From contig CALXYD010000002.1 in assembly GCA_944392865.1 (NCBI GenBank), forward strand, positions 4,896-68,895: a DNA stretch of 64,000 nt, written 5' to 3'. This document shows positions 16,205 through 32,907 of this stretch, piece by piece. The DNA comes from an uncultured Alphaproteobacteria bacterium. GTDB lineage: Bacteria > Pseudomonadota > Alphaproteobacteria > RF32 > CAG-239. The number at the start of each line of letters is the position of its first letter. The stretch's first letter is position 1. The notes beneath the pieces are model-generated. The model was not told where the DNA came from and did no database searches. It saw nothing but the letters and a program-made list of their open reading frames with translations. Position numbers and translations under genes: made by a program.

Positions 16205-16207
16205 ACA

Positions 16208-16645: not shown

Positions 16646-16657
16646 AAAAGCTAAAAT

Positions 16658-17764
16658 CTATTCCTCTTTATGCAAATAAACGGATATACTCACCGACGCC
16701 ACAATAATCACCGGCACCCAAACGGCAAACCACGCCGGAATATATGAATTTATGCCAAAAGCAGAAACGACTTGCGATATAAAATAAACAGCAAACCCCG
16801 TGGCAATACCCGAAACAATCATCATCAACACCCCGCCCTGTCGCTGGTTTGGCTTTAAGGAAAAAATACCCGCCACTAAAACCATAGCCATCAAAAAGAA
16901 CGGCAATGCAATCAAACTGAGATAACGCATCTTGTAACGTTGCACCGAAAAACCGGAAGTTTCATAAAATTCAATCGTATCCGGCAAATTCCAAAAAGAA
17001 ATCGCCTCCGGATCCACAAAATTATCTTTAATCCTCTGTAAATTCATCTCTGTCGGATAACGTAAACTATTCAAAATCTCTGCCTGTTGCCCGGCTTTGT
17101 AAATCCGCACATCGCGCAAATTCATTTCTCCGTTTTCCAACGTCGCCACAAACGCCTCTATACGCCTCTCAACTTGCATTTTCTCATCAACCTCAATAAT
17201 ACTGATATCGCGCAACCATAAAACATCGTCTTGCAAGTTAAGATTTCCGGCATTGATTATGGCAACTGTTCCGTTACCTTTCCCTTCTCTTATCCATAAC
17301 CCTTTGTTAGAAAATAAAAAAGCGTTCGGATTATCCGTTGATAAACGATACGACATCGTTTCTCTTAGTTCATAAAGTTTTGCCCCGATAGGATTCAACA
17401 CGGCCACCCAGACAACACCAATCATAAAAACCGCCAGCAATACCGGCACCAGCACGCCCCAAATAGATACGCCGGCAGCCCGGATAATGACAAACTCATT
17501 CGTCTTGCTCAACCGCCAAAAAGCAATCATTGTGGAAACCATCACAATAAAAGGAACAACTTTATCCACCGTTTCGGGCAATTTTGCAATAACATACTCC
17601 ACAAGAAAGCCGATAGACACATCATATCGGCCGGAAGTGCGCCGTAAAATTTCTATCATATCAAACATCATAATAATGGCACACACCACCGCCAACACAA
17701 ACAAAAAATTCAATATTGTCTGTTTAACAAGATATGAGCCTAGAATTGAATTTGGTTTCATCAT
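16658..17764 (-). CDS. lptG: LPS export ABC transporter permease LptG
   Basis: 368 aa with YjgP/YjgQ permease topology: 3 TM helices, a periplasmic beta-jellyroll, then 3 TM helices. The N-terminus matches LptG-like proteins. Confidence 0.85.
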   Translation of the reverse strand: MMKPNSILGSYLVKQTILNFLFVLAVVCAIIMMFDMIEILRRTSGRYDVSIGFLVEYVIAKLPETVDKVVPFIVMVSTMIAFWRLSKTNEFVIIRAAGVSIWGVLVPVLLAVFMIGVVWVAVLNPIGAKLYELRETMSYRLSTDNPNAFLFSNKGLWIREGKGNGTVAIINAGNLNLQDDVLWLRDISIIEVDEKMQVERRIEAFVATLENGEMNLRDVRIYKAGQQAEILNSLRYPTEMNLQRIKDNFVDPEAISFWNLPDTIEFYETSGFSVQRYKMRYLSLIALPFFLMAMVLVAGIFSLKPNQRQGGVLMMIVSGIATGFAVYFISQVVSAFGINSYIPAWFAVWVPVIIVASVSISVYLHKEE

Positions 17765-17776
17765 TGCTAAAAATCC

Positions 17777-18700
17777 CTAAAAATAACCGGTAGATAAATA
17801 ACGCTCAACCCCGTCTGGCAAAACAACAACCAGCCGTTTATTAACAAATTCATCTCTTTCTGCCAGCTTCACCGCCGCCGTAACCGCCGCTCCGGCAGAT
17901 ATACCGATAGGCAATCCTTCCGTTTCCGCAACCGTTTTAACCATTTTAATTGCAACGTCATCATCTATTTTTACGACTTCATCAACCAACGATTTATCAT
18001 AAAACTTTGGCACAAAACCGGCACCGATTCCCTGTATCTTATGGCTACCGGCAGTCTCCCCGCTCAAAACCGCACTTCCGGCAGGCTCTACCGCCGCCAC
18101 AAACAAATCCTGATTATATGTTTTCAACACAGAAGCAATTCCCGTTAACGTTCCGGATGTTCCGACACAGGCCACGATTGCATCAAAATCTCCACCGGTA
18201 TCTTCCAAAATTTCCATAGCCGTCCCCAACCGGTGTGCATTCGGATTCGCCTCATTTTCAAACTGCCCCAGAATAATCACATTCGGATTACGTTCTTTAA
18301 GCATTTCCGCCTTATGAATAGCTCCGCTCATACCATCTTCAGCCTGCGTCAAAATAACTTCCGCGCCAAAATGGCGAATAAGTCTAATTCTCTCCGCCGA
18401 CATATTTTCCGGCATAACAATAATCAGCTTATACCTTTTTGCCGCACAAATCGCCGCCAGAGCAATGCCCGTATTCCCAGACGTTGCCTCCACAAAAACC
18501 GTTTCATCGGATATACCTTTTTTCTCCGCATCTTCCAACATAGAGAGCGCAACTCGGTCTTTAATTGAAAACAAAGGATTATACATCTCGCATTTCGCCA
18601 AAATCTCTGCTTTCAACTTAAACCTCGTCGCCAGATTGCCCAATCGCAGCAAGGGGGTATGTCCCACCATCTCCGTAATTGAATTATAGATTGCCGTCAT
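17777..18700 (-). CDS. cysK: cysteine synthase A
   Basis: NPLFSIKDRVA PLP-lysine motif, the TSGNTGIALA loop and the GTSGTLTG glycine-rich loop. Confidence 0.9.
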   Translation of the reverse strand: MTAIYNSITEMVGHTPLLRLGNLATRFKLKAEILAKCEMYNPLFSIKDRVALSMLEDAEKKGISDETVFVEATSGNTGIALAAICAAKRYKLIIVMPENMSAERIRLIRHFGAEVILTQAEDGMSGAIHKAEMLKERNPNVIILGQFENEANPNAHRLGTAMEILEDTGGDFDAIVACVGTSGTLTGIASVLKTYNQDLFVAAVEPAGSAVLSGETAGSHKIQGIGAGFVPKFYDKSLVDEVVKIDDDVAIKMVKTVAETEGLPIGISAGAAVTAAVKLAERDEFVNKRLVVVLPDGVERYLSTGYF

Positions 18701-19355
18701 TTTCTTTTTCCAAAATATTTAAAAATTCATTCAAACCGCTCATACCTTTCCTTTCCGCACGCGCGGCAACAATAATCGCCGTTGCCTCCTTTATAGCCTC
18801 ATTTAAATCATCATTTACGATGATATAATCATAAAACGCAGCCTCTTTTATCCTTTTAACTGCCATCTGCATCCGTCGCTCTATAACTTCAGATGTATCC
18901 GTACCCCGTTTTTCCAGGCGTTCGCGTAAAATTTTCAACGACGGCGGCAACAGCGCAATCGCTTTAACCCTGTCGCCGGCAAGCTTGCGCAATTGTTGCA
19001 CTCCGGGATAATCCAAATCCAAAATAACGTCTTTACCCTGTCTCAACAACTTATCTACCGGCTCTCTCGGTGTCCCGTATTTAGGCCCGAAATCCGAATC
19101 GACATATTCATACAAAGCTCTTTCTTTTACTAACGCCTTAAATTTATCCTCATCAATAAAATAATAATCTTTTCCTTCCGTTTCCCCTTCTCTCATTGGC
19201 CGCGTCGTAACCGAAACGGATAATTGGATATCATCAAGCTCCTGCAACAGCCTCTTTATAACCGAACTTTTACCGCCCCCGCTCGGTGCCGAAAAAATAA
19301 ACAACTGCCCTTCGCGCTGAATTTCCTTATTTTTATTCATCATAAATCCTCGCAA
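18684..19355 (-). CDS. gmk: guanylate kinase
   Basis: SAPSGGGKSS P-loop and VSVTTRPMREGE. The start may be one of the internal Mets (MMNKNK). Confidence 0.9.
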   Translation of the reverse strand: MRGFMMNKNKEIQREGQLFIFSAPSGGGKSSVIKRLLQELDDIQLSVSVTTRPMREGETEGKDYYFIDEDKFKALVKERALYEYVDSDFGPKYGTPREPVDKLLRQGKDVILDLDYPGVQQLRKLAGDRVKAIALLPPSLKILRERLEKRGTDTSEVIERRMQMAVKRIKEAAFYDYIIVNDDLNEAIKEATAIIVAARAERKGMSGLNEFLNILEKENDGNL

Positions 19356-19448
19356 TCCCCAAAGTTCATATTACACTTCACAAATATCCAAAACCATTAT
19401 ATATAGGATAAAATGCATAAATAAAGCTTTATTTTAAAGGATTACACT

Positions 19449-20210
19449 ATGATTATCAAAAATATTTTAATAACTGGGGCTTCTTCCGGAATTGGAGAGG
19501 CCTTGGCTTTACACTATGCCCAGCAGCCGGAAACCGAAAATCTTTTTATTTGCGGGCGCAACAAACAACGGCTGCAAGCCGTAAAAAAAGCCTGTGAAGA
19601 AGCCGGATCCGCAAAAATTCATGCCGACATTATTGATGTCACTGACCGAGCCGCCGTTGAAAAATGGATAAACTCGGCAGAGCAGCTGTCTCCTCTTAAT
19701 CTTGTCTTCGCCAATGCCGGCGTTGCCTCGCTGCAAGAAACGCCCGAAAACATTTTCAACACCTTTGATATCAATGTTTTCGGAGTCTTAAACACAATAA
19801 CTCCCGCCATAGAAAATTATAAAAAGCGCCCGGACAAAAACAAAATCATCGCCATAACAGCCTCAATTGCCGGATACCACGGTTTAGCTGCCTGCCCATC
19901 ATACAGCGCCACCAAAGCTTGCGTAAAAGCCTATGGCGAAGCATTGCGCCTGCATTTATTGCCTTATAACATTCAGGTCAACACCATTTGTCCCGGTTTC
20001 ATCCGTTCCCGCATAACCGATAAAAACACCTGTCCGATGCCTTTTTTCATGGAAGCGGCACCCGCTGCGGCACTCATTGCCGGCAGGATACAAAAAAATA
20101 TCGGTTTGATAGCCTTTCCTTGGCCGATGCGGCTCGCCGTCTGGCTTGGAAGCATTTTGCCCAATCGCCTCAGCGACTACATCTATAAAATACTCCCGTA
20201 CAAAGTTTAG
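19449..20210 (+). CDS. SDR-family oxidoreductase
   Basis: TGASSGIG cofactor motif, NAG, and the YSATK catalytic Tyr/Lys. Confidence 0.85.
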   Translation: MIIKNILITGASSGIGEALALHYAQQPETENLFICGRNKQRLQAVKKACEEAGSAKIHADIIDVTDRAAVEKWINSAEQLSPLNLVFANAGVASLQETPENIFNTFDINVFGVLNTITPAIENYKKRPDKNKIIAITASIAGYHGLAACPSYSATKACVKAYGEALRLHLLPYNIQVNTICPGFIRSRITDKNTCPMPFFMEAAPAAALIAGRIQKNIGLIAFPWPMRLAVWLGSILPNRLSDYIYKILPYKV

Positions 20211-20378
20211 CAAAATTTCGTCTCCATACCTTACCGGTTGAATTTTTTCTTGACTTTTCACATATTTAAAGCTAAAAAGCCGTCAGTTCTTCATACGGTG
20301 CAGTATGACGGAACATTTTTTAATATGCACAAGTCCGCCTCAAACCGAGGGTCTGGCATTTTTTGAAAATAAAATATA

Positions 20379-22064
20379 ATGGCAAATACTGCAGAAATTC
20401 AAATTCCTGAAATGACCGAAAATTTTGCTGACTTGTTAAACGAACAATTCGGCGACAAAGGCATTGTCGGCACGGTTATGAAAGGTACCGTCATCCGTTT
20501 GTCGGATGATTATGCCACCGTTGATGTCGGCTTGAAATCAGAAGGCCGCATTCCTCTTCGTGAGTTTGGCAAAAACAACGAATTAAAAGTCGGCGACACC
20601 GTTGAAGTCTTGGTTGACAGATATGAAGACAAAGACGGCAACATCGTCCTCTCGCGTGAAAAAGCCCGCCGTGAAGAAGTATGGCAGGATCTGGAAAAGA
20701 TGATGAACAACAATGAAAGAGTAAACGGCGTTATCTTCGGTCGCGTTAAAGGCGGCTTTACCGTTGACTTAAACGGTGCCATCGCTTTCTTGCCCGGTTC
20801 TCAGATTGATATTCGCCCGATTAAGGACATCACGCCGTTAATGGGCATTTCTCAACCGTTCCAGATTTTGAAGATGGACAAAGTCCGTGGCAACATCGTT
20901 GTTTCCCGCCGTGTCGTTCTGGAAGAAACCAGAGCCTCTGCCCGTGCGGAATTGATGGACAACATCAAAGAAGGTGCAATTCTTGAAGGTATCGTCAAGA
21001 ACTTGACGGATTACGGCGCATTCATTGACTTGGGCGGCGTAGACGGCCTGTTGCACGTTACCGACATTTCCTGGAAGAGAATCAACCACCCGGCGGAAGT
21101 TCTTACGCTCGGTCAGACGGTAAAAGTCCAGGTTATCAAGTTCAATGAAGACACGCAGCGCATCAGCCTCGGTATGAAACAGCTTGAGAATGACCCGTGG
21201 CAGTCTGTTGCTGACAAATACAAAGTCGGCGAAGTCTACAAAGGCAAAGTTACCAACATCACCGACTACGGCGCATTTATTGAACTGGAAGACGGTATTG
21301 AAGGTTTGGTACACGTTTCCGAAATGAGCTGGACGCGTAAAAACGTTCACCCCGGCAAGATTGTCTCCACTTCTCAGGAAGTTGAGGTTAAAGTTCTGGA
21401 AGTTGATCCGGAAAAACGCCGTATCAGCCTGGGCATCAAACAATGCACGCCGAATCCGTGGGCCGCTTATATTGAAGAACACCCACTGGATTCCATCATT
21501 GAAGGCAAAATTAAGAATATCACCGAATTCGGTCTGTTCATCGGCCTTTCTGATGAAATTGACGGTATGATTCACCTGTCTGATATTTCTTGGGAAAAAT
21601 CCGGCGAAGAAGCCGTTAAGGACTACACCAAAGGTCAAACCATTCAGGCAAAAATCATTGATGTTGATGTTGAAAAAGAGCGCATTAGCTTAGGTATTAA
21701 GCAAATGTCTGAAAACAACGTCGCAATGACTTTAGAATCCTTAAAGAAAGGCGATATTGTCAAAGCCATTGTTACCGGCGCTGATGAAAAAGGCGTTCAG
21801 GTAACGGTTCAGGGTATTGCCGCCACGATTAAAAAGGCAGACCTGTCCAAAGAAAACAATGACCCGTTAAGCTACAAAGAGGGCGATGTTTTGGAAGCAA
21901 AATTGACCTCTGTTGACCGTAAAAATGCTAAACTCGGCGTTTCGGTAAAAGCTTACGAGATTGAAGAAGAAAAGAAAGCGTTGGAAGAATATTCCGCCGC
22001 CAACTCTTCTGGTTCAACTTTGGGCGAAGCCCTGGGCGAAGCTCTGAAAAAGAAAGAAGAATAA
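20379..22064 (+). CDS. rpsA: 30S ribosomal protein S1
   Basis: Six S1 repeats (for example GxVxxxTDYGAFIDLGGVDGLLHVTDISW). Confidence 0.96.
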   Translation: MANTAEIQIPEMTENFADLLNEQFGDKGIVGTVMKGTVIRLSDDYATVDVGLKSEGRIPLREFGKNNELKVGDTVEVLVDRYEDKDGNIVLSREKARREEVWQDLEKMMNNNERVNGVIFGRVKGGFTVDLNGAIAFLPGSQIDIRPIKDITPLMGISQPFQILKMDKVRGNIVVSRRVVLEETRASARAELMDNIKEGAILEGIVKNLTDYGAFIDLGGVDGLLHVTDISWKRINHPAEVLTLGQTVKVQVIKFNEDTQRISLGMKQLENDPWQSVADKYKVGEVYKGKVTNITDYGAFIELEDGIEGLVHVSEMSWTRKNVHPGKIVSTSQEVEVKVLEVDPEKRRISLGIKQCTPNPWAAYIEEHPLDSIIEGKIKNITEFGLFIGLSDEIDGMIHLSDISWEKSGEEAVKDYTKGQTIQAKIIDVDVEKERISLGIKQMSENNVAMTLESLKKGDIVKAIVTGADEKGVQVTVQGIAATIKKADLSKENNDPLSYKEGDVLEAKLTSVDRKNAKLGVSVKAYEIEEEKKALEEYSAANSSGSTLGEALGEALKKKEE

Positions 22065-22084
22065 TCTCTTTCTTTTTGCTAACC

Positions 22085-22122
22085 AAAACACTCTGTATTC
22101 TTTGGAGTACAGAGTGTTTTTT
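22085..22122 (+). terminator. rho-independent terminator of rpsA
   Basis: Perfect 13-bp stem AAAACACTCTGTA / TACAGAGTGTTTT with a 10-nt loop, followed by a T-run. Confidence 0.85.
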
Positions 22123-22183
22123 ATTTCGTTAATTTCTCCCGCCCACCCGAATAGAGCATAAAAAAACACGCCGCTTATCTTTT

Positions 22184-22249
22184 TTTAAACGGCGTATTTA
22201 AACAATGTATTTAAACCTCAATCAATAGATTTAAACAGCGTATTTAAAT
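22184..22249 (+). repeat. tandem 13-bp array TTTAAAC-NNN-GTA (five TTTAAAC/T units, three full GTATTTAAA cores)
   Basis: The sequence reads TTTAAACGGCGTA TTTAAACAATGTA TTTAAACCTCAATCAATAGA TTTAAACAGCGTA TTTAAAT. Units start at 22184, 22197, 22210, 22230 and 22243, giving spacings of 13, 13, 20 and 13. The array ends at the stop codon of the small secreted ORF. Confidence 0.85.
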
Positions 22250-22567
22250 CTAGTCATCGCTTTCAGTTTCCTGCACCAACACATCTTCTTCCACCAAAAC
22301 CGGCTGCGCGGCAGAAGAATCAATCGGCGCCACTTCAACCCCGGGGTCGCCCGGCAAAGGCTGCATATCTGCCGAATCGGCATTGCCTGGCGCATTATTT
22401 CCCGCCGGTGTCGCCACCGCAGACGCACTATAAGTTTCAATAATCATCACACCGCCGTTATCCGCCGCATCTGCGGCATCAGCCGTTCCGCTCGCCCCGG
22501 CAATAGCCTGGCTGACAATCAACGCCAACGCCGATATAGCCAAAAGCCCCATAAACAATCTGTTCAT
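22250..22567 (-). CDS. small acidic secreted protein (Ala/Asp/Pro-rich)
   Basis: I trimmed the start to MNRLFMGLLAISALALIVSQAIA, a signal peptide preceded by GGAGG 8 nt upstream. G+C is visibly higher than in the flanks. I recognise no family. Confidence 0.5.
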   Translation of the reverse strand: MNRLFMGLLAISALALIVSQAIAGASGTADAADAADNGGVMIIETYSASAVATPAGNNAPGNADSADMQPLPGDPGVEVAPIDSSAAQPVLVEEDVLVQETESDD

Positions 22568-22658
22568 CTGTTTATCCTCCAAAATTAAAACGATACGCCG
22601 GAGATATAATCGCCGCCCGCCTTATTTCAAGCCCTCTCCCAATACCTCCCCATCTAAA

Positions 22659-22672
22659 ACGCCGTATTTAAA
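22659..22672 (+). repeat. copy of the GTATTTAAA core (ACGCCGTATTTAAA)
   Basis: Exact core that overlaps the U-tract side of the terminator of the 201-aa OMP gene. Confidence 0.8.
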
Positions 22673-22700
22673 ACGCAAAAACGGCAGGATAACCCGCCGT
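22671..22700 (-). terminator. terminator of the 201-aa OMP gene
   Basis: On the - strand: stem ACGGCGGG / CCTGCCGT (one mismatch), loop TTAT, then TTTTTGCGTTTT. Confidence 0.55.
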
Positions 22701-22720
22701 TTCGCCTATACTTTTCCGTG

Positions 22721-23326
22721 TCAGAAATAAATCCTGATACCTCCCGTGAAGATTCCTCCCCACTTCGTCTCGCCCACGCCATCTATCGGGATGGACTGAT
22801 AGCGCGCCTCGCCAAAGAGCGCAAATCTGGATGATAAATTAACCGAACCGCTAAGCCCGACACCCAAATAATACCGCCCATAATACGCGTGCCCGTGGTG
22901 GTCGTAATAATGTCCGCCGTGGAACCACTCCTCTTGGAGCGCATATCCCGTATGCGCCATTAACGACAGCCGCCCGATTTCCGACGCCAACAAATTCACG
23001 CCAAAATTAACGCCAAGCGTTACCGTAGACAGCGTATTTGTTTCCGTCGCGCCATAACCGTCGTCCCAAACCGAGTTAATAGAAAGGTAACTTCCCTCTA
23101 ACTCTCCGACAAACAGACCGGCTTCCATACCTATCCGGACATTAAATGTCGGAGAAGCCAAATCATTAACTAACCCGGCACCAGCACCAAACCCGGCGTA
23201 AAAATTCACCCCGTTTCCGAATAATCCATCGTCATACCGGCAGAAATACTGGGCTTGCGCACTCTGAATACCCATACTGCAGATGACAGCTATCGCCGCC
23301 ACTACCGCAAAAAATCTTTTTTTCAT
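22721..23326 (-). CDS. small outer-membrane beta-barrel protein (OmpX/OmpW-like size class)
   Basis: Signal peptide MKKRFFAVVAAIAVICSMGIQSAQA, Gly/aromatic-rich alternating strands and a terminal GGIRIYF. Confidence 0.7.
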   Translation of the reverse strand: MKKRFFAVVAAIAVICSMGIQSAQAQYFCRYDDGLFGNGVNFYAGFGAGAGLVNDLASPTFNVRIGMEAGLFVGELEGSYLSINSVWDDGYGATETNTLSTVTLGVNFGVNLLASEIGRLSLMAHTGYALQEEWFHGGHYYDHHGHAYYGRYYLGVGLSGSVNLSSRFALFGEARYQSIPIDGVGETKWGGIFTGGIRIYF

Positions 23327-23420
23327 ATATAAGTAATTTTAGTTCTGCCTATAAATATACCAGATTTTTCCCCTTTGTGCAACAAAAAAATACTTCCCCG
23401 ATTCCCCCCTAAAATACCAC

Positions 23421-23468
23421 AAAAAAAAGCAAGGGGAGCGAGAGCCGCTGCCCTCAATCTTCCCTTGC
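23421..23468 (-). terminator. terminator of OMP paralogue A
   Basis: On the - strand: GCAAGGGA ... TCCCCTTGC stem (one bulge) followed by TTTTTTTT. Confidence 0.6.
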
Positions 23469-23483
23469 TTTCTTCTGTGACCC

Positions 23484-24512
23484 TTACTTAGCGACGGTGC
23501 TGTTGCGCCACAACGAAAATGGAACGGCTATTGTCGCCCATACGTTGTGGTTCCAGTCCGCCATGGCGTTGCCGACGAGGCGGGTGTAAGAATACCCCAG
23601 CGACATCTCAAAATATGGCATACGCCATTTAATGAATGCGCCAGGCCCTACGCCCATCCCGTCATGGGTAACCCAGGATTCCTTATCGGAAACCGGGCGC
23701 TTGGTATCGGTTTGATACCACATAGCGTCCACCATGGCACCAACCCAAAGATTCTTGTCATCTTTTTGATTGTTCCACAGCTTCACGCCAAGCCCCATCT
23801 GGGCACCGCCGGTGAAGTAAGACTTGCCAGGGTTATTGGCGGTTTCGGGATAATAAGCCCATCCAATTTTGCCTTGGATGTATCCCCCAAAAAGCCTTCC
23901 CCAACGAGCCAATTCCAAGCCCAAATACGGAGTCCACTCTCCGGAGGACGAGTAGTTAATGCCCACCACCGGCGCAAGCTGCCAGTAGTAAGTATTTTTA
24001 GCCTCAAGAACAATGGGATTCTCTCTGTTCTCTTGGCCGTTCTCGTCCACCATATAAGCTACTCGCCCAGTGCGAGCCTCACCACCGGCGATGACATTTT
24101 CCGAAACCGTCGTCTTGTCTGACGAAGTTCGGATTTTGTCATCTAACGCCTCACGGCGGGCTATTTCCGCAGGCGACAGCTCAGAAGCCGTATAAACGAA
24201 CTTCTGTAGCTTGCGCGCCTCCTTGTCCTTCAGACCAATAAAGGTCATCTGAACAAAAAGGCTGTCGCCCTCAATCCATTGGTCTTCTGCCAAAAGGCAG
24301 ACAGTCTCAGAGGATTGTTTCTCTAGGAACTGACCAATAGCCTGCAGGCTATCTGTTCCCAGTTCAACAACTTCCACCTCGGCGGAACCGAACAACTCGG
24401 CCTTCACCTCAGTGGAAAGGTTAACTACTCGCTGCGCACTCGCTGTTGTTGCGCAGAAAACCAAAGCCACGCATGTCGCAATGACTCTGGCAAAAGCTTT
24501 CAAATTTGCCAT
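23484..24512 (-). CDS. secreted/outer-membrane protein, paralogue A (variable N-domain plus beta-rich C-domain)
   Basis: Signal peptide MANLKAFARVIATCVALVFCATTASAQ is almost identical to that of paralogue B. The C-terminal half is rich in Gly/Trp/Tyr. G+C is higher than in neighbouring genes. Confidence 0.65.
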   Translation of the reverse strand: MANLKAFARVIATCVALVFCATTASAQRVVNLSTEVKAELFGSAEVEVVELGTDSLQAIGQFLEKQSSETVCLLAEDQWIEGDSLFVQMTFIGLKDKEARKLQKFVYTASELSPAEIARREALDDKIRTSSDKTTVSENVIAGGEARTGRVAYMVDENGQENRENPIVLEAKNTYYWQLAPVVGINYSSSGEWTPYLGLELARWGRLFGGYIQGKIGWAYYPETANNPGKSYFTGGAQMGLGVKLWNNQKDDKNLWVGAMVDAMWYQTDTKRPVSDKESWVTHDGMGVGPGAFIKWRMPYFEMSLGYSYTRLVGNAMADWNHNVWATIAVPFSLWRNSTVAK

Positions 24513-24810
24513 TTTTGTATGAATTTAATTGTTTACGGCAATTTGAAAAACCTCAGAGTATTACCAGACGTGACCTCGCAAGTAAATCACATTCATAATA
24601 ACCTCTAAAATAATTCAAACCGCCAGAATAATTTTTTATCAACTTTACTATAACATCTTTTTCTTGTCTTTTCAATCATTTTTTTTGTGGATTCCGTCCA
24701 TATACCCCCGCTTTTGACTCATTTTTTTAAACAAATAGACTTTAAACCTGCCGATTCGCTCGCCTTTCCGCCCGATCCGCCCGCAAAATTCAATCCGTTC
24801 GCCTCTCATC
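24432..24810 (-). repeat. direct repeat copy A (~379 bp): upstream region, promoter, uORF and signal-peptide codons
   Basis: Aligns with 25733..26106 at a constant offset of 1301 at the ATG. I count 2 mismatches in the 81 nt of CDS and ~94% identity in the distal 210 nt. The uORF segment is more diverged. Confidence 0.85.
24647..24675 (-). promoter_or_regulatory. sigma70-type promoter of paralogue A (TTGAAA-N17-TATAGT)
   Basis: The - strand reads TTGAAA agacaagaaaaagatgt TATAGT. The same hexamers and spacing are conserved in copy B. Confidence 0.5.
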
Positions 24811-24860
24811 AATACTCATTTGCCACCAATACATCATACCCGACTCGCGACATAACTCCT

Positions 24861-24909
24861 CAAAAAAAGAAACAGCAAACTTTTGAGGGTTGCTCAAAGT
24901 TTGCTGTTT
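24861..24909 (-). terminator. rho-independent terminator of paralogue B
   Basis: Perfect 14-bp stem AAACAGCAAACTTT / AAAGTTTGCTGTTT with a 12-nt loop, followed on the - strand by CTTTTTTT. Confidence 0.8.
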
Positions 24910-24943
24910 TCAATTTGTGATCCCTTGCCACACCGCCAGAGGG

Positions 24944-25813
24944 CTAGAAAGTCTTCATGACCTTGAACATTGCACTTCCGCGCAAGTCCTTGATCAAATT
25001 TTGACCTGCATTGCCCTCATTGTAAGGCATGATTAAGCCGGCGGCGTTAAAGCCTAAGCGCCAGCCATTCCGACCAACACCCCACATACCCTCTATATAG
25101 AGACCTCCTCCGAAGCCCCATTTATGAGAGTATACAGTTGCCTTGTCCGAATCGCTCTGGCTGTATCCCAGCAACCCTTTCAGACCTACTGCAAAGTAGT
25201 CGTCAAAGTCCTGAGACTTCCACACCTTAAATCCGGCATTTGCCTGGAAGTAAGGCATAGAATAACGGTCATTGGCATACTCCGCTTTACTTGGATACCA
25301 TGCCTCCGTCCAGCCAATTCCGGCGCCAACCAGCCAATTCCGAGTTTCAAACCCGATATTAGCTTCAACCATCGGCGCGACGCCTTTTTCTCCAGCCGAT
25401 GCACCAGCGGCAACTGATACGGTCGTTTTCCGTATCTTATCGCCGTTAGCTTTTTGCCGGTCGGCGTTAAGCGCCTCCATGCGGCCTTCGCGGACAGCGC
25501 GGAACTCTTCCGGCGTCATGTCGCGAAGTCTTTTCACGGGCACCATAATGGTATCCCTGAAAAGACGCGGCTCTCCGTCAAAGAGCGCAATTCTCTTGCA
25601 TTCAATGACGTGATACTTGCCGTCTTTCTCCCCGAGTTTCCTCAGGTCGTAAAGGCAAGTATCTTGGGGGTTGCTTACTAAGTATTCCCTGATCTGGTCG
25701 TCAGACCAACGAATACTTTGTTTGATTACTCTCTGCGCACTCGCTGTTGTTGCGCAGAAAACCAAAGCCACGCATGTCGCAATGACTCTGGAAAAAGCTT
25801 TCAAATCTGCCAT
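24944..25813 (-). CDS. secreted/outer-membrane beta-barrel protein, paralogue B
   Basis: Signal peptide MADLKAFSRVIATCVALVFCATTASAQ, a beta-rich C-terminal half and a terminal MFKVMKTF. Confidence 0.65.
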   Translation of the reverse strand: MADLKAFSRVIATCVALVFCATTASAQRVIKQSIRWSDDQIREYLVSNPQDTCLYDLRKLGEKDGKYHVIECKRIALFDGEPRLFRDTIMVPVKRLRDMTPEEFRAVREGRMEALNADRQKANGDKIRKTTVSVAAGASAGEKGVAPMVEANIGFETRNWLVGAGIGWTEAWYPSKAEYANDRYSMPYFQANAGFKVWKSQDFDDYFAVGLKGLLGYSQSDSDKATVYSHKWGFGGGLYIEGMWGVGRNGWRLGFNAAGLIMPYNEGNAGQNLIKDLRGSAMFKVMKTF

Positions 25814-26106
25814 TTTTTTTATAAATTTAATTGTTACGGCAGCTTGAAAAACTTCAGAGTATCACCAGAACCAACCCCGCAAAAGGATCACATTCATAAT
25901 AACCTCTAAAATAATTCAAACTGCCAAAATAATTTTTTATCAATTTCACTATAACATCTTTTTCCTGTCTTTTCAATCATTTTTTTGTGGATTCCGTCCA
26001 CATACCCCGCTTTTGACTCATTTTTTTAAACAAATAGACTTTAAACCTGCCGATTCGCTTGCCTTTCCGCCCAATTCGCCCGCAAAATTCAATCCGCTCC
26101 CATCAC
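25733..26106 (-). repeat. direct repeat copy B (~374 bp)
   Basis: See copy A. It fills almost the whole divergent spacer between paralogue B and valS. Confidence 0.85.
25948..25976 (-). promoter_or_regulatory. sigma70-type promoter of paralogue B (TTGAAA-N17-TATAGT)
   Basis: The - strand reads TTGAAA agacaggaaaaagatgt TATAGT. Confidence 0.5.
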
Positions 26107-26117
26107 ATTTTAAACCC

Positions 26118-26146
26118 TTTACTTTTAAACCGGACTTTGCTAAAAT
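26118..26146 (+). promoter_or_regulatory. candidate valS promoter (TTTACT-N17-TAAAAT)
   Basis: The hexamers have a 17-nt spacer and lie ~40 nt upstream of the valS ATG. One TTTAAAC unit falls inside the spacer. Confidence 0.4.
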
Positions 26147-26183
26147 CCCGCATAGTGTGATTTTTTATGGAGTATAAACAATA

Positions 26184-28793
26184 ATGTCTTACAAACAGGA
26201 ACCGGGCTTGGATAAGCAATTCAACGCCGAAGAGATAGAAAAACGCTGCGATGCCTACTGGAACGCCAACGAAATTTATAAATACGACGCCACGCAAAGC
26301 CGTGATAACAGCTTTGTCATAGACACTCCGCCGCCAACCGTCTCCGGCTCATTGCACATCGGGCACATTTTCAGTTACACGCAAACCGACATTATTGCCA
26401 GATACCAGCGCATGCAGGGCAAATCCGTCTTTTATCCTATCGGTTGGGATGACAACGGATTACCGACCGAACGCCGCGTCCAAAATTATTATAATATCGC
26501 CTGCAACCCCAAAATTGCCTACGACCCGGCCTTTAAACCGCAACATATAGAAAATGACAAAGCCGACCGGCGCGAAGTTTCCCGTAAAAACTTTATTGAA
26601 GCCTGCGAAACATTAACCGCCGAAGACGAAAAAATCTTTGAAAACGTCTTCCGTCGCATTGGCCATTCGTATGACTGGAATTTAACCTATTCCACCATCA
26701 GCCCGTCATCCATAAAAATCTCTCAGGCCTCATTTCTTGATTTATACCAAAAAGGCAAAGTCGTCGCCGTTGAAGCGCCGATTATGTGGGATGTAACGTT
26801 CAAATCCGCCGTTTCTCAAGCCGAGGTTGAAGATAAGGAAATGGAGGGCTGGTTCCATGATATCCGTTTCAGCGTCAAAGACAGCGATGAAACATTTACC
26901 ATTGCCACCACCCGCCCCGAATTGCTGGCCTCGTGTCTGGCTATCGTCGCCCACCCGGACGATGAGCGCTACAAACACCTGTTCGGCAAAACCGCCATCG
27001 TCCCCCTGTTTGATATTCCGGTACCGATTGTGCCGTCCGAACACGCCGAAAAAGACAAAGGAACAGGTATTATGATGGTCTGCACCTTTGGCGACGCCGC
27101 TGACGTGGCATGGTGGAAAAAATCCGGTCTGCCGATTAAACAAATCATCGGACTGGACGGCAAAATTATGAACATCACATACGGCGAAGGCGTCTTCAAT
27201 ACCCTGAACAAAGAAGAAGCCCAAAAGAATTTCAACCAGATTATCGGCCTGCCGGCACATATCGCCAAGAAAAAAGTTGCTGAAATGTTGCAGGAACAGG
27301 GCTTTCTCATCGGCGAGCCGAAAAAAATCGTCCACCCGGTTAAGTTTTATGAAAAGGGCAACCTGCCGCTGGAATTTGTTTCTTCCCGCCAATGGTTTAT
27401 TAAACTGATGGATATGAAAGAAGAAATGCTTTCCGCCGGACGTAAAATTGAATGGCTGCCGGCGTATATGCAACACCGTTACGAAACCTGGACAGAAGGC
27501 TTAAACCAAGACTGGTGTATCAGCCGCCAACGTTACTTCGGCGTTCCTTTCCCTGTTTGGTATAAGGTTGACGCCAACGGCAATATTGACTATTCCGCAA
27601 TAATTTTGCCGGATAAAAGCCGCCTGCCGATTGACCCGATGGCAGATACGCCGGACGGCTACACCGAAGCCCAACGCAATCAACCCAACGGATTCGCCGG
27701 CGACCCGGATGTTATGGACACCTGGGCAACCTCATCTTTAACCCCGCAAATCGCTATGGCAATGGCCAAAGACGGCTCCAACCTTTCCATGCCGTTTGAT
27801 ATCCGCCCGCAAGCGCACGACATTATCCGCACTTGGGCTTTTTACACCATCGCCAAAAGCTTAATGCACGAAAACACGATTCCGTGGCACAAAACGCTCA
27901 TCAGCGGCTTTATTCTGGATCCGGATCGTAAAAAGATGAGCAAATCCAAAGGCAACGTCGTAACCCCCATGCATTTAATAGAAAGCCACTCCGCCGACGC
28001 CGTCCGTTATTGGGCTGCCAAAGCAAAACTTGGCGTAGACACGGCTTTTGATGAAAAAATGATGCAACAGGGACGCAAGCTCATTGTCAAAATTTTCAAC
28101 GCCAGCAAATTTGTCTTTATGATTGTCGGAAATTCAACTTCCGCCGATTATGCCAAAAATATTACAGCTGCGTCGGATAAATCCTGGCTCAAAAAACTTG
28201 CCGACACGGTAAAATCAGCCAAACAATGCTTTGAAAATTATGATTACGCGCTGGCTCTGGATTCCATAGAAACCCGTTTTTGGGATTTCTGCGACAACTA
28301 CGTTGAAATTGTCAAAAAACGCGCCTATTCCGAAGACAATGCCTCTGCCATCGCAACATTAAAACTTTCTCTGGATTCGTTTGCCATACTGCTGGCGCCT
28401 TTCTGCCCGTTTATCACCGAAGAAGTATATCAGGCGCGCCCGTGGAAACAACCGCAGGATATTTCCGTTCACAAAGAACAGTGGGCATCGCTTGACATCC
28501 TGAACACGGTTGCGGCAGATGATTCGCTGTTGTATGACACAATTTCCGCCGTTTCCTCAGAAATCCGCAAACAAAAAACATTGGAAAACAAATCGCAGAA
28601 AAATCCGGTCTTAAACTTGACGGTCAAAGCCGGTGAAAAAACAATTTCCTGCTTAAAAGCCAATGATGAGGACTTGCTGAACGTCGGCAATATCGTTGCA
28701 AACGGTATAGCATATCAAATCGCAACAGAATTAAGCGTTGAAAACATTTTACTTGACCAAAATTTTGTTCCCGAAAAAAAGAAAGTCGGTTAA
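26184..28793 (+). CDS. valS: valine--tRNA ligase (type-2, archaeal/actinobacterial-like form)
   Basis: PPPTVSGSLHIGH (HIGH motif), KMSKSKGN (KMSKS motif) and GWDDNGLPTE. It is 869 aa and I see no long C-terminal coiled coil. Confidence 0.93.
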   Translation: MSYKQEPGLDKQFNAEEIEKRCDAYWNANEIYKYDATQSRDNSFVIDTPPPTVSGSLHIGHIFSYTQTDIIARYQRMQGKSVFYPIGWDDNGLPTERRVQNYYNIACNPKIAYDPAFKPQHIENDKADRREVSRKNFIEACETLTAEDEKIFENVFRRIGHSYDWNLTYSTISPSSIKISQASFLDLYQKGKVVAVEAPIMWDVTFKSAVSQAEVEDKEMEGWFHDIRFSVKDSDETFTIATTRPELLASCLAIVAHPDDERYKHLFGKTAIVPLFDIPVPIVPSEHAEKDKGTGIMMVCTFGDAADVAWWKKSGLPIKQIIGLDGKIMNITYGEGVFNTLNKEEAQKNFNQIIGLPAHIAKKKVAEMLQEQGFLIGEPKKIVHPVKFYEKGNLPLEFVSSRQWFIKLMDMKEEMLSAGRKIEWLPAYMQHRYETWTEGLNQDWCISRQRYFGVPFPVWYKVDANGNIDYSAIILPDKSRLPIDPMADTPDGYTEAQRNQPNGFAGDPDVMDTWATSSLTPQIAMAMAKDGSNLSMPFDIRPQAHDIIRTWAFYTIAKSLMHENTIPWHKTLISGFILDPDRKKMSKSKGNVVTPMHLIESHSADAVRYWAAKAKLGVDTAFDEKMMQQGRKLIVKIFNASKFVFMIVGNSTSADYAKNITAASDKSWLKKLADTVKSAKQCFENYDYALALDSIETRFWDFCDNYVEIVKKRAYSEDNASAIATLKLSLDSFAILLAPFCPFITEEVYQARPWKQPQDISVHKEQWASLDILNTVAADDSLLYDTISAVSSEIRKQKTLENKSQKNPVLNLTVKAGEKTISCLKANDEDLLNVGNIVANGIAYQIATELSVENILLDQNFVPEKKKVG

Positions 28794-28815
28794 AACCCGA
28801 TTCGTTCTCATCTTA

Positions 28816-28850
28816 AAAGCCGGTGGATTATCCGCCGGCTTTCTTATTTA
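28816..28850. terminator. hairpin between convergent valS and smr-domain gene
   Basis: Stem AAAGCCGGTGG / CCGCCGGCTTT (one G-U pair), 5-nt loop and a T-rich tail. It overlaps the smr-domain gene's stop codon. Confidence 0.6.
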
Positions 28851-29356
28851 TCGCGCTTCCTCAACATAATATACAATGCGCCTGCCCCGCCTTTCGCCTC
28901 TGACGGATGTTTAAACGCCAAAATCAGCGGGCTTATTTCTGAATGGCTGAGCCACCCCGGAACAGACTTGCGCAACACTCCTTTTCCGCTAAATAACGTA
29001 TCGTCAATACCCTTGCCGGTAACAATCAAGACACACCGTTTTCGTGCCTCGTATGCTCCTTTTATAAAATCACATACCCGCCCGAAAGCATCTTTTTCCG
29101 TCGTCCCGTGCAAATCCAACACGGCCTCAATCTTAAACTCTTCCCGCTTAAATCGCTTGGCAAGCGTCCCATCCATTTGTGAAAAATCATCTATTCCAAC
29201 GCTTTTACCGCTTTTGAGCACCTCAAACGTAACTGTAACTTCCTTATTCTGGCGAAACTCAATTTCTTTCGGCGGTTCAATCTTCTCTACATGGAGATTC
29301 GTCTGAATACGCTTCACGCCTTTCACCGTTTCCGCCCAAACATCTTCATCAGTCAT
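28844..29356 (-). CDS. Smr-domain protein
   Basis: The C-terminal LDLHGTTEKDAF ... VTGKG ... GGAGALYI region matches the Smr/MutS2 C-terminal domain. Confidence 0.8.
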   Translation of the reverse strand: MTDEDVWAETVKGVKRIQTNLHVEKIEPPKEIEFRQNKEVTVTFEVLKSGKSVGIDDFSQMDGTLAKRFKREEFKIEAVLDLHGTTEKDAFGRVCDFIKGAYEARKRCVLIVTGKGIDDTLFSGKGVLRKSVPGWLSHSEISPLILAFKHPSEAKGGAGALYIMLRKRDK

Positions 29357-30521
29357 AAATTTCCGCCTTTACGCCTTTGGGCAACAAAACAAAATACTGT
29401 CCCTGCGAATTCATCCGCCCCGCCTCGGCGAAAGCCTCCTCTCCGTGTCCCCAAAAATAATCGCCGCGCACACCACCTTTTATGGCACTGCCGACATCTT
29501 CGGCCATAACCAGCTTATTCAAAGCCTCACCGTCCGGAGTCGTTGTTTCTAACCACATCATCACGCCCAACGGAATATAATTTTTATCAACCGCCAGGCT
29601 TCGTCCCGCCACTAACGGAACCCCCATAGCGCCGATTGGCCCGTCTGCTTTGACTATTTTATGAAAAATATAACGCTCATTAAGCAGCATATTCTTTTTC
29701 GCCGTTTCGCCGTTTTCTTGTAGCCACTCGCGGATTTTCGGCATAGACGCTTCGCCGGACTCAATCAACCCTTTTTCTAAAAGAATAGAGCCGATTCCCT
29801 TGAAACGATGCCCGTTGTTATCCGCATAACCAACGCGTATTTCTTTTCCATCAGGCAAAGTCGCCACAGCCGCCCCTTGAATCTGCATAATATAAATATC
29901 AACCGGATTATCACCCCACAAAATAACCGGCGCATCAATCTTTCCGGCATCAATCTCTTCCCGCGTATAATACTTAACCAGTTTGCCGTTCTTAACCCGT
30001 CCGACAATCCGGCGATTCGGCAGGCTCTTATCAAAATCCTTTAACTGAACTTCCACCAAATCTTTCGGCTTCCCGTAAATCGGATATTGATATTTGCCAC
30101 CCTGTTTAAAACTGGCGCGAATAGCCGCCTCATAATAAGACGTGAACTTTCCTTTTGAATGCCCGTCAACCACCACCAAATACGGCTCAAAATTATTCTC
30201 AATATATTTTTTCAGCTGCACCGCATCGCTAATATCAACCATCTCCTGGCATTTTTCCCGATATGGCGCAACAGGAATCTCCAAAACTTCACTCTTCAAA
30301 GACTTTTGCGATGTCTGCCCGATAACATTACAAACAGAAACCAACGCTTTCTGAAAAGAAGCTAAATTGTCCTCTGCCCAACCGTCTAAAGCGGCAAAAG
30401 AACTTTTTTGCAATGCAAAATGCTCAATCGGACGAATTTCTTTATCTTCGCCCGAACACGAAAACAAAAAAATACAAAAAACAAATATCAGTCCGCGTTT
30501 CAGCATTTCTTCGTCGAACAC
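29349..30521 (-). CDS. mltA: murein transglycosylase A (lipoprotein)
   Basis: Lipobox LFSC near the N-terminus, an MltA-specific region, and a C-terminal 3D domain (DVGSAIKGGVRGDYFWG). Confidence 0.85.
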   Translation of the reverse strand: MFDEEMLKRGLIFVFCIFLFSCSGEDKEIRPIEHFALQKSSFAALDGWAEDNLASFQKALVSVCNVIGQTSQKSLKSEVLEIPVAPYREKCQEMVDISDAVQLKKYIENNFEPYLVVVDGHSKGKFTSYYEAAIRASFKQGGKYQYPIYGKPKDLVEVQLKDFDKSLPNRRIVGRVKNGKLVKYYTREEIDAGKIDAPVILWGDNPVDIYIMQIQGAAVATLPDGKEIRVGYADNNGHRFKGIGSILLEKGLIESGEASMPKIREWLQENGETAKKNMLLNERYIFHKIVKADGPIGAMGVPLVAGRSLAVDKNYIPLGVMMWLETTTPDGEALNKLVMAEDVGSAIKGGVRGDYFWGHGEEAFAEAGRMNSQGQYFVLLPKGVKAEIYD

Positions 30522-31141
30522 AACAACCAGTTATTCACTCTTGGATTCAAAGGCTTTTCAAATGTCCAGACATCTGAAATCTTCTGAACATAATTTTCAT
30601 CGCCTTCAATAATTTCCCCTTGGGCATTTTTCAAAAGATTAACCTGTTCGCTGACAAACTTCACAACCAGATTGACTTTATCATCACTGACAAACTTGAC
30701 CGATTCGACTTCTGTCTCCAAAAAATCAATCAAATCCGTTTCCGCTACGATTCCCTGTTCTTTTCTATCGTTAATGACTTTCTCAAACTTTGCCAACAAA
30801 TCCTTATTAACCAATTTGGCCAACGTCCCGGCATCGCCTTTGCTGAAAGCCGATAAAATCATTTCAAAAGCTTTCTGCGCCCCTTTAATAAAAATATTCT
30901 TGTTAAAATTCGGAATTTTCGCCAAATCACGCTCCAGCGGAGATAAATTGCTCGTATCCACCGCCGCATTTTCATTACTGTGTGCCGTTTTTTTCAATTC
31001 ATTATAAACTTTTTCAAATTGCTCTTTGGGAATCATAATAACTTTTGCATCTTCTCCCCCTGTCCCGAGAACACTTTTAAGCTTACTAAAAATAATAACC
31101 ACCAAAACCAGCAAAAATATAATATCCAAATATCCTGACAT
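30500..31141 (-). CDS. Tim44-like domain protein
   Basis: I trimmed the start to MSGYLDIIFLLVLVVIIF (TM helix). The C-terminal DVWTFEKPLNPRVNNWLL is typical of bacterial Tim44 homologues. The 73 extra codons in the track ORF run into the secB start region. Confidence 0.7.
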   Translation of the reverse strand: MSGYLDIIFLLVLVVIIFSKLKSVLGTGGEDAKVIMIPKEQFEKVYNELKKTAHSNENAAVDTSNLSPLERDLAKIPNFNKNIFIKGAQKAFEMILSAFSKGDAGTLAKLVNKDLLAKFEKVINDRKEQGIVAETDLIDFLETEVESVKFVSDDKVNLVVKFVSEQVNLLKNAQGEIIEGDENYVQKISDVWTFEKPLNPRVNNWLLCSTKKC

Positions 31142-31278
31142 TTTGACACCTCTGTTAAATCTACCTCTAATATAACGATAAATATCTTTATTATCAACTA
31201 TTATGTTTGACGTATAAAATAAAAAGCTGTATGCAGGACTATATGCAAAAAAAACAAACTTGATGAAAGGACAAACCA

Positions 31279-31722
31279 ATGAGCAATACTCCGGAAAATC
31301 CAGAAGTTTCCTTAAATATGCAATATATTCGCGATATGTCGCTGGAAGTACCGCACGCACCGGAAATTTTCGCTAAACTGAGCACTCAGCCAAAAATAAA
31401 TGTTGATTTAAACATTGACGTCAACAAACTTAACGAAAAGAACTACGAAGTAACCTTAAATCTGCGTCTGAATGCTGATATTGACGACGAGTCGCTGTTT
31501 ATTTTTGAATTAGCCTACGCTGCCGCTTGCACCGTTAAACTGCCGGAAGAACAAATTGAACCTGTTTTGTTCATTGAGATTCCCAAGCTCATCTTCCCGT
31601 ATGCCCGCCAGATTATCTCCTCCAATCTGGCAAACGCAGGTTTACCGCCGCTTATGCTGACGCCGATTGATTTCGCCGCCGTATACAAAAAGAAAAAAGA
31701 ACAAATCGTAAAGCCGAACTAA
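31279..31722 (+). CDS. secB: protein-export chaperone SecB
   Basis: LNMQYIRDMSLEVPHAPEIF and LFPYARQIISSNLANAGLPPLML. Confidence 0.88.
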   Translation: MSNTPENPEVSLNMQYIRDMSLEVPHAPEIFAKLSTQPKINVDLNIDVNKLNEKNYEVTLNLRLNADIDDESLFIFELAYAAACTVKLPEEQIEPVLFIEIPKLIFPYARQIISSNLANAGLPPLMLTPIDFAAVYKKKKEQIVKPN

Positions 31723-31723
31723 A

Positions 31724-32825: not shown

Positions 32826-32847
32826 CTTTCTTTCAAATTCATTATAT

Positions 32848-32878: not shown

Positions 32879-32907
32879 ATATTCTTTAACCCACCAAAAG
32901 CCTACAA

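Follow-up and report, generated by a model that had tools for sequence, protein, structure and literature searches.

A promoter, leader and signal-peptide module probably kept alike by gene conversion between tandem genes for predicted outer-membrane proteins of uncultured gut Alphaproteobacteria

How do two neighboring genes come to carry nearly the same promoter, leader and signal-peptide codons in front of protein bodies that have little in common? The question is raised by a 64,000-nucleotide stretch of contig CALXYD010000002.1, from an uncultured alphaproteobacterium, which was analyzed as a whole and is referred to below as the window. Between rpsA (20379-22064, plus strand) and valS (26184-28793, plus strand) it holds an islet of four minus-strand open reading frames (ORFs) for signal-peptide proteins of 105, 201, 342 and 289 amino acids (aa), as had been described in an earlier reading of the letters (the original prediction) and as the ORF list bears out. 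The two genes proximal to valS, A (342 aa) and B (289 aa), share their 5' part. The original prediction took this part for a modular expression cassette set before different surface proteins, offered gene conversion, cassette-swapping antigenic variation or a constrained regulatory region as its explanation, and suggested from base composition that the islet had been acquired horizontally. Here we argue that the copies of the module likely evolve in concert by gene conversion, and that the tandem outer-membrane protein (OMP) paralogs behind them stay distinct. The genes and cassettes in question are as follows.

23484-24512, minus strand: gene A, 342 aa, with a signal peptide, an N-terminal alpha/beta domain (about residues 30-127), a linker and a C-terminal beta-barrel (about 140-334) as modeled with AlphaFold2 (AF2) and matched with Foldseek; its product ends ...NSTVAK
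24944-25813, minus strand: gene B, 289 aa, with a signal peptide, an N-terminal domain and an 8-stranded barrel (about 129-288), from the same AF2 and Foldseek analyses; its product ends ...MKTF
24426-24809, minus strand: cassette copy A, i.e., upstream segment, promoter, leader and signal-peptide codons of the 342-aa gene, delimited by blastn boundaries and segment identities
25727-26108, minus strand: cassette copy B, the same module before the 289-aa gene, delimited in the same way

The repeat is real and sharply bounded. In blastn the cassettes align as a direct repeat with 90.9% identity over 385 columns (E 1e-150), which confirms the duplication ahead of the two genes, and searches with both cassettes found no copy beyond A and B in the 64-kb window. 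The next 90-100 nt outside the repeat, on either side, are 46-48% identical, i.e., unrelated. Within the repeat, codons 1-27 of the signal peptides agree at 79/81 nt, matching the two mismatches first counted. The promoter agrees at 28/29 positions from -35 to -10, and the 134 nt upstream of the -35 are 92.5% identical. The leader, which spans 134 nt from the -10 hexamer to the ATG, is 84.7% identical and is the least similar part of the module in the window genome. An identity of about 94%, given earlier for the shared region, thus fits the upstream part and the promoter and does not fit the leader, and the leader length of 128 nt given with it agrees with ours if transcription starts about 7 nt past the -10. 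Taken together, a modular promoter/leader/signal-peptide unit before two different protein bodies is supported, and its parts are the following.

24647-24675, minus strand: predicted sigma-70-type promoter of copy A, TTGAAA-N17-(TG)TATAGT, from a promoter scan and seen in the relatives that show the promoter region
25948-25976, minus strand: predicted sigma-70-type promoter of copy B, from a promoter scan
24687-24698, minus strand: upstream box GACGGAATCCAC of copy A, followed by an A8 tract (24679-24686) that adjoins the -35, from the sequence and cross-species comparison
25987-25998, minus strand: upstream box GACGGAATCCAC of copy B, followed by an A7 tract (25980-25986), from the same comparison
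24432-24512, minus strand: signal-peptide codons 1-27 of gene A (MANLKAFARVIATCVALVFCATTASAQ), with an ASA-Q cleavage site of signal peptidase I (SPase I) type by eye, from the ORF and reading of the sequence
25733-25813, minus strand: signal-peptide codons 1-27 of gene B (MADLKAFSRVIATCVALVFCATTASAQ), from the ORF and reading of the sequence

Both copies have the predicted sigma-70-type sequence TTGAAA-N17-TATAGT with a TG extended -10 (10/12 match), and in each copy it is the best promoter-like match in the region, in agreement with the original prediction. The box reads GAC(G/A)GAATC(C/T/A)AC plus A-tract across the clade, with exceptions in three genomes (L022, L027 and L018), and the A-tract upstream of the -35 presumably resembles the proximal subsite of an UP element. 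Homopolymer lengths vary between cassette copies, as in the A8 (copy A) and A7 (copy B) tracts between box and -35; A/T runs directly before the start codon also vary among the copies of L002 and L009 and are possibly prone to slippage. The signal peptides end ...TASA-QR (AxA type). Inspection, with no dedicated predictor run, found no lipobox Cys in them, and their sole Cys lies in ...LVFC-ATT, without G, A or S at -1.

Relatives of the window genome came from a ValS-anchored scan of species-representative genomes. This yielded about 25 metagenome-assembled genomes (MAGs) with ValS 87-92% identical, many from gut samples and under labels that include 'uncultured Alphaproteobacteria', 'uncultured Rickettsiales UMGS1453' and 'Acetobacter sp. 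46_36'. Strain-level contigs were obtained by exact-protein look-ups. Relatives were examined over flanks of about 10 kb, plus one 64-kb window. A metagenome pattern scan with GACRGAATCYACAAAAAR was too short to be specific: it gave at least 120 matches, mostly due to chance, and the genuine ones among the matches listed were five loci, all in the rpsA-valS slot.

Wherever the slot was readable, i.e., in 19/19 genomes with ValS identities of 87-100%, it held two cassette-bearing genes, and the two valS-proximal genes had a 5' direct repeat in common that measured 284-709 nt and was 85-100% identical within the genome. The repeat usually ends 85-98 nt past the ATG, 2-6 codons beyond the AxA-Q site. 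A short repeat is also present downstream of both genes in L020 and L027.

A neighbor-joining (NJ) tree was built from the 38 cassette copies, each taken as 260 nt upstream together with 26 codons. It pairs the copies according to genome or species, and A and B clades never form. In the extreme cases, L018 and L022, the cassettes are 100% identical within the genome and less than 47% identical to those of any other genome. Signal peptides are likewise matched within genomes, with both genes showing MKQLKKVAKTIAICVVLVFCA... in L002, MKTNFFFKAVLVIVFALVAIAASAQ in L008 and MKATSFFKSIIAMMVAFAAGSANAQ in L022. The bodies cluster by type across species, B with B and A with A, at about 25% identity between A and B of one genome. 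Because cassettes cluster by genome and bodies by type, the cassettes have evolved in concert. Synonymous divergence (dS) in the signal-peptide codons is 0 between A and B of the window genome and about 1.0 between the window and a conspecific strain. Purifying selection alone cannot give such a match within genomes together with divergence between them, which argues for repeated homogenization.

A single event of this kind appears to separate the window from L001, a near-clonal genome.

24491-24709, minus strand: minimal conversion tract between the window (A state) and L001 (B state), from diagnostic sites; the maximal tract is 24432-24760

The two genomes differ at 47 positions in 15,033 nt, of which 27 fall in 24491-24709 (cassette A) and 18 in a patch upstream of rpsA. 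In the A copy of L001, 32/32 sites diagnostic for A versus B within 24491-24709 are in the B state, 47/47 flanking sites are in the A state, and there are no other changes. The pattern reads as one clean B-to-A tract of 219-329 nt. The patch upstream of rpsA is an observation in its own right: at 20260-20322, in the SDR-rpsA interval that holds the promoter and 5' untranslated region (UTR) of rpsA, the window differs at 18 sites from L001, L005 and L006, which agree with one another, and the difference could be due to a short recombined segment or to a different allele of a hairpin.

Exchange also appears in the opposite direction, since the B copy of L005 shows the reverse tract and has an A-type leader. 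Leader types (type 1 as in copy A of the window, type 2 as in its copy B) were compared across 12 strain-level loci from independent assemblies. The configuration is B2/A1 in the window, L006 and L007, B2/A2 in L001 and L164, and B1/A1 in L005, L165 and L166; L168 also has an A2 copy. The signal peptide comes in three or more alleles, and both copies in a genome almost always carry the same one; only in L165-L167 is the B copy partly unlike the A copy. Gene conversion, one of the mechanisms first offered for the module, is borne out by the clustering of copies by genome and by the discrete tract between two near-clonal genomes.

We propose the following mechanism. Each gene would carry its own module, consisting of the upstream box and A-tract, a strong sigma-70-type promoter, a leader of about 130 nt with a rod of about 90 nt, and an SPase I-type signal peptide. 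Non-reciprocal gene conversion between the direct repeats would overwrite one module copy with the other, in both directions, by intrachromosomal homologous recombination that presumably depends on RecA. The copies would thereby stay 85-100% identical within a genome and diverge freely between genomes. Conversion would usually halt a few codons past the cleavage site and about 190-300 nt upstream of the ATG, at a homology cliff, and the bodies would stay distinct because conversion stops where homology ends. The outcome would be two proteins under identical transcriptional, post-transcriptional and export control, with co-regulation as the probable benefit.

Several points weigh against this account. 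The boundary at the cleavage site is typical, not fixed: in L018, L027 and L022 the first 238-400 nt of the coding region also belong to the repeat, and part or all of the N-terminal domain is homogenized too. All genomes are metagenome assemblies, and a de Bruijn mis-path through a 91% repeat could mimic the single tract between the window and L001; this worry is lessened in that the configurations recur in independent samples and that non-identical copies have species-specific substitutions in common. Promoter, transcription start, leader and co-regulation are predictions, and the structure models of the proteins reach only moderate confidence (pLDDT, the predicted local distance difference test, of 60-67). 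Finally, given the scope of the searches, the genomes may hold further cassette copies elsewhere.

The part of the module that differs most between the window copies is the leader, and it is also the part with a predicted structure.

24519-24645, minus strand: structured 5' leader of copy A (type 1), with a rod hairpin at about 24536-24625; covariance model 103.1 bits, RNAalifold helices P1 and P2, minimum free energy (MFE) z = -4.1
25820-25946, minus strand: structured 5' leader of copy B (type 2), with a hairpin at about 25837-25926; covariance model 105.9 bits, MFE z = -5.5

RNAalifold on 19 leaders gave two nested helices, P1 (9 bp) and P2 (8 bp), with double changes in 9/17 pairs, and the same structure holds on a 42-copy model alignment. 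Of the cells, 94.1% are paired, and sliding the partner by 1-3 columns lowers this to 35-57%. As many covarying pairs were reached by 1/500 shuffles, and the other measures by 0/500. The differences between type 1 and type 2 are compensatory (GGCGGUUUG/CAAAUUGCC versus GGCAGUUUG/CAAGCUGCC). When folded individually, leaders from eight species each form one imperfect rod of about 90 nt, made of P1, P2 and an apical stem, with MFE z of -3.5 to -5.5. The rod starts about 15-20 nt from the predicted 5' end and is followed by an A/U-rich stretch that contains the start codon and has no clear Shine-Dalgarno sequence. In each genome the covariance model has exactly two matches, at 59-116 bits; it has none elsewhere in 608 kb and none in relatives whose ValS identity is 67% or less. 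Rfam 15 has no match for either window leader at E <= 1. The leader is predicted, with support from covariation, to form a rod hairpin of about 90 nt that has no Rfam match. Constraint on the region, another of the explanations first offered, is supported as well, in that promoter, upstream box and leader hairpin are kept across the clade.

Two further candidates within the leader were rejected. The alignments do not yield an inner hairpin, P3, as a consensus, since register and length differ between clades; it is seen only in single-sequence folds. An upstream ORF of 11 codons behind AGAGG (MNVIYLRGHVW or MNVILLRGWFW, each then a stop) is present in both window leader types; its ATG is missing from L017, L022 and L027, its frame is shifted in L005 by a 1-nt deletion, and in clade II lengths and frames differ, all of which rule it out. 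Conservation of the leader appears to act at the level of RNA and not of an upstream ORF. Two observations on single lineages stand apart from this. The leaders of clade II (L008, L010-L012, L015, L016, L021 and L025) have a run of U6-8 directly after the rod, terminator- or attenuator-like, and the window clade lacks the U-run. The B-copy leader of L167 has a gap over about 29 variable alignment columns in the hairpin, with the ORF called at 319 aa, which is either a real deletion or an assembly error.

A more ambitious reading, which we hold to be possible and on balance doubtful, is that rod leader and upstream box together make up an undescribed, clade-specific cis-regulatory RNA/DNA element, and that conversion is selected for strict register between A and B. 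If so, the hairpin could be an attenuator in clade II, where the U-run is found, or a switch that binds RNase III or a protein. Barrels A and B would then be made in register, e.g., as partners in one envelope complex, through co-regulation enforced by recombination.

What the modules express is less easily recognized. Neither Pfam nor NCBIfam gave an above-threshold match for any of the four islet proteins. Without signal peptides, A and B align colinearly at 25% identity (E 4e-4). The mature parts had been called dissimilar, which is right for the DNA; the proteins are weak colinear paralogs. AF2 models of moderate confidence (pLDDT 66.7 for A and 59.7 for B) have the same layout, in which a signal peptide and an N-terminal domain of about 80-100 residues are joined through a linker of low confidence to a C-terminal region that is all beta. 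In Foldseek searches against PDB, both barrels fall near NspA, the OmpA transmembrane domain (OmpA-TM), OmpX and Ail with probability 1.0. Target-normalized template modeling (TM) scores for B are 0.73 with NspA and 0.68 with OmpA-TM, and those for A are about 0.5. The C-terminal residue of B is aromatic (...FKVMKTF, a typical barrel end) and that of A is not (...WRNSTVAK). We model A and B as ancient paralogs, each with an N-terminal domain and an 8-stranded outer-membrane barrel; since they are only about 25% identical, the duplication would be old. The family is small, with 28 clusters for A and 15 for B among 5.8 billion proteins and 38 representatives among 1.84 billion proteins in an exhaustive profile search, and it appears to be confined to a clade of uncultured gut Alphaproteobacteria.

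Between strains, the A-B block is much more diverged than its surroundings. From the window to L005, dS is 0.033 for rpsA, 0.045 for valS, 0.115 for the gene of the 201-aa protein (p201), 0.37 for the A body, 0.57 for the B body and about 1.0 for the signal-peptide codons. The ratio of nonsynonymous to synonymous divergence (dN/dS) in the A and B bodies is 0.11-0.19. Low dN/dS together with high dS suggests that the block is a haplotype, either old or imported, that sits in a young background and is not a target of simple positive selection. Its divergence points to inter-strain recombination or a long-lived polymorphism at a cell-envelope locus. In protein A, 44-58% of the sites in signal peptide, N-terminal domain and linker are variable and 27% of those in the barrel. 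Hypervariable barrel loops were not found in this protein, its predicted loops being 30% variable versus 25% for the strands.

Other explanations of the locus have to be weighed against concerted evolution by conversion. An improbable one, to which we nevertheless give some weight, is that the main role of the direct repeats is to let the B body be reversibly deleted or amplified, with conversion as a by-product. Direct repeats about 1.3 kb apart can delete or duplicate the gene between them, and the slot appears to gain and lose envelope genes between species. The gene for p201 is truncated in L002 and L009 (a 45-aa C-terminal remnant) and absent from L011 and L022. Four clade II genomes (L008, L012, L016 and L021) have an extra signal-peptide protein of 276-281 aa, ending ...FYYRIRF(I/V)P(Y), between the homologue of the 105-aa gene (p105) and rpsA. 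However, every fully covered slot has exactly two cassette-bearing genes, and neither a one-gene nor a three-gene state occurs in the 19 genomes.

There is little to recommend a recently acquired foreign islet, in which the repeat would be the relic of a recent duplication in the donor. The G+C of the islet genes is 0.50-0.52, the highest in the window in a G+C profile, against a gene mean of 0.414 (standard deviation 0.052), i.e., about two standard deviations above it. The islet proteins lack Pfam and NCBIfam matches, and strains differ far more in the A-B block than in the flanks. Yet G+C at third codon positions (GC3) in the islet, 0.545-0.583, is about that of the flanking housekeeping genes (0.548 in valS and 0.509 in rpsA), and the excess lies largely at second positions (GC2). 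The higher G+C on which horizontal acquisition had been proposed is therefore real but modest, and weaker evidence than it first appeared. The position of the islet is also the same in 19/19 relatives, with the gene order SecB-Tim44-MltA-Smr-ValS-B-A-p201-p105-RpsA-SDR-Gmk. Grouping in the ValS tree equals the deep classes of OMP bodies (bootstrap for clade I 77/100). No tRNA gene lies in 15000-33000, and no integrase, invertase, transposase or other mobility gene is among the called neighbors within 7 kb on either side at five loci, which comprise SecB, Tim44, MltA, Smr, ValS, RpsA, SDR, Gmk, PALP, LptF/G, a thioesterase and RuvB. The confinement of the family to the clade and the age of the A/B duplication speak against recent import as well. 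Because the slot is conserved, body classes follow the ValS tree, and tRNA and mobility genes are lacking from the regions searched, the evidence argues for an islet that is syntenic and vertically inherited with fast divergence, and not acquired.

Programmed antigenic or phase variation, in which the 5' module would be an expression site or recombinase target moved between bodies, as happens in the vsp, vpma and vsa families of mycoplasmas or in expression-site systems of pathogens, is just as hard to credit, and we regard this reading as largely refuted. A common 5' UTR and signal peptide before divergent bodies does resemble the vpma and vsp systems of mycoplasmas (PMC2268961), the A-B block is very diverse between strains, and gene order is swapped in L027, in which an A-type body is valS-proximal and a B-type body distal, the reverse of the window. 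But both copies have complete promoters, the repeats are direct and not inverted, and no recombinase is among the genes called at the five loci. In the 64 kb and the flanks there are two copies and no silent cassettes. In most species each body is a stable ortholog of the one at the same position. No displayed part of the proteins is encoded in the exchanged DNA. Variation is not enriched in predicted loops, and dN/dS is 0.1-0.2. Cassette-swapping, as once proposed for this locus, thus finds no support, the part that is exchanged being non-antigenic.

An assembly artefact, i.e., a collapsed or chimeric short-read assembly that makes the repeat or the tracts, has a very slight chance of being the answer. 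All sequences are metagenome assemblies, many contigs break in the cassette (L003, L004, L160-162 and L168), and the tract ends necessarily lie in stretches common to both copies. Breaks of this sort are expected of a true repeat, however, and the repeat is found in more than 25 independent assemblies from different projects. Most copies are 85-98% alike and not identical, yet have species-specific substitutions in common, which collapse cannot produce. Configurations also recur across samples: L006 equals L007, L165 equals L166, and B2/A2 is found both in L001 and in L164, whose signal-peptide alleles differ. The least probable reading, an ancient duplicated regulatory region kept alike by purifying selection alone with no recombination, accounts for the conservation of promoter hexamers, upstream box and leader helices across the clade, but it predicts clustering by position where copies cluster by genome, and it is refuted, unless the assemblies are wrong, by synonymous sites of the signal peptide that are identical within a genome and saturated between strains, by poorly constrained positions (e.g., in the variable 3' part of the leader and upstream of the box) that are co-inherited by both copies, and by a contiguous 219-nt tract that flips state between near-clones.

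Concerted evolution of a module in front of distinct bodies can be compared with several known systems. The C-terminal halves of A and B have NspA, OmpA-TM, OmpX and Ail as their best structural matches, with which they share signal peptides and, in B, a C-terminal Phe. They differ from NspA, OmpA and OmpX in that they belong to none of these sequence families, in that a domain of about 100 residues precedes the barrel (the reverse of the order in OmpA), and in that A has no terminal aromatic residue. In E. coli, the mRNA of ompA, which encodes an abundant OMP, has a long, structured 5' UTR. Like the leaders described here, it measures about 130 nt, is stably structured and precedes a gene for a small-barrel OMP, with an A/U-rich start region and a weak or absent Shine-Dalgarno sequence; the present leaders have no sequence or Rfam relationship to it and consist of a single rod of about 90 nt, which may act in stability, RNase III processing, attenuation or factor binding.

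The closest process is known from Helicobacter pylori, in which the paralogous OMP genes babA/babB, homA/homB and sabA/sabB/hopQ undergo segmental concerted evolution (PMC3960876). There, too, one segment is more alike within than between strains through intragenomic (RecA-type) conversion and other segments are allelic types (PMC3960876). In H. pylori, however, the 3' coding part is homogenized, the loci are dispersed, functional chimeras alter adhesion, and expression is also phase-variable (PMC3960876). In the gut lineage, promoter, 5' UTR and signal peptide are homogenized, the genes are in tandem, and the mature proteins are normally untouched.

A common front end with different bodies is also a feature of vpma in Mycoplasma agalactiae and vsp in M. 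bovis, in which 5' UTR and signal-peptide regions are conserved and the mature parts differ (PMC2268961). These genes encode lipoproteins switched by a neighboring tyrosine recombinase that acts at sites in the 5' UTR. In the rpsA-valS slot no recombinase was called, the repeats are direct, each gene has a full promoter, the signal peptides read as SPase I-type, and there are two genes only. Another defining trait of vpma and vsp, a single active promoter with silent inverted genes, is absent here: -35 and -10 are complete in both copies and both genes lie on the minus strand. In the tandem lipoprotein cluster lpl of Staphylococcus aureus, the evolutionary unit does not match the ORF, as it takes in intergenic sequence together with the 5' end of the gene that follows (Tsuru & Kobayashi 2008; PMC2568036). 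It resembles the present locus as a set of tandem envelope-protein paralogs in which a conserved stretch is the site of homologous recombination (PMC2568036). The recombining region of lpl is central in the ORF and shuffles variable halves (PMC2568036), whereas here it is a regulatory, leader and signal-peptide module and is homogenized.

The remaining features of the islet lie outside the repeat.

22250-22567, minus strand: 105-aa signal-peptide protein, Ala/Asp-rich, an islet neighbor
22721-23326, minus strand: 201-aa signal-peptide protein, C-terminus ...GGIRIYF, with its own promoter and terminator, an islet neighbor
23418-23479, minus strand: terminator hairpin and T-run after gene A, an inverted repeat with a fold of -39 kcal/mol
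24862-24910, minus strand: terminator hairpin and T-run after gene B, directly upstream of cassette A, from its fold

A homologue of p105 is present in most clade members whose contig reaches that side of the slot. Each of the four islet genes was said to have its own terminator, and a hairpin with a T-run is indeed found behind all four, with folds of -21 to -39 kcal/mol; 2/4 were called by a terminator scan. A 19-nt motif, TTTAAATACNNNGTTTAAA, has 10 copies in the window at up to two mismatches versus 0.31 expected, nearly all on the minus strand. They include copies at 22184-22248, 22654-22672, 13156, 55456, 55756, 62403 and 62582; three follow one another directly downstream of the 105-aa gene, another comes after the 201-aa gene, and two lie within the mnmE ORF. 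Farther along the window, a 442-aa ORF at 56545-57873 (minus strand) has no Pfam match and, at 0.255, the lowest G+C of the window. It sits between mnmE (55181-56512) and mnmG/gidA (58031-59875), with gidB at 59942-60559, and G+C is below that of the rest of the window throughout 50-64 kb.

The process described here, segmental concerted evolution, is known, and no new mechanism of variation is revealed. What is new is that a whole expression module is homogenized, with a structured leader specific to the lineage. The locus is an unusually clean natural case, with sharp homology cliffs, tracts in both directions and an event caught between near-clonal genomes. It also holds a warning for annotation and binning, as contigs of this lineage routinely break inside the cassette. 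For uncultured gut Alphaproteobacteria, whose regulation is sparsely known, the leader adds a predicted RNA supported by covariation. The rpsA-valS slot emerges as a fast-evolving envelope-protein locus, with an allele block about 10-fold more different than the flanks between conspecific strains, and it would help in typing strains and in identifying surface components of the lineage that are exposed to phages or the host.

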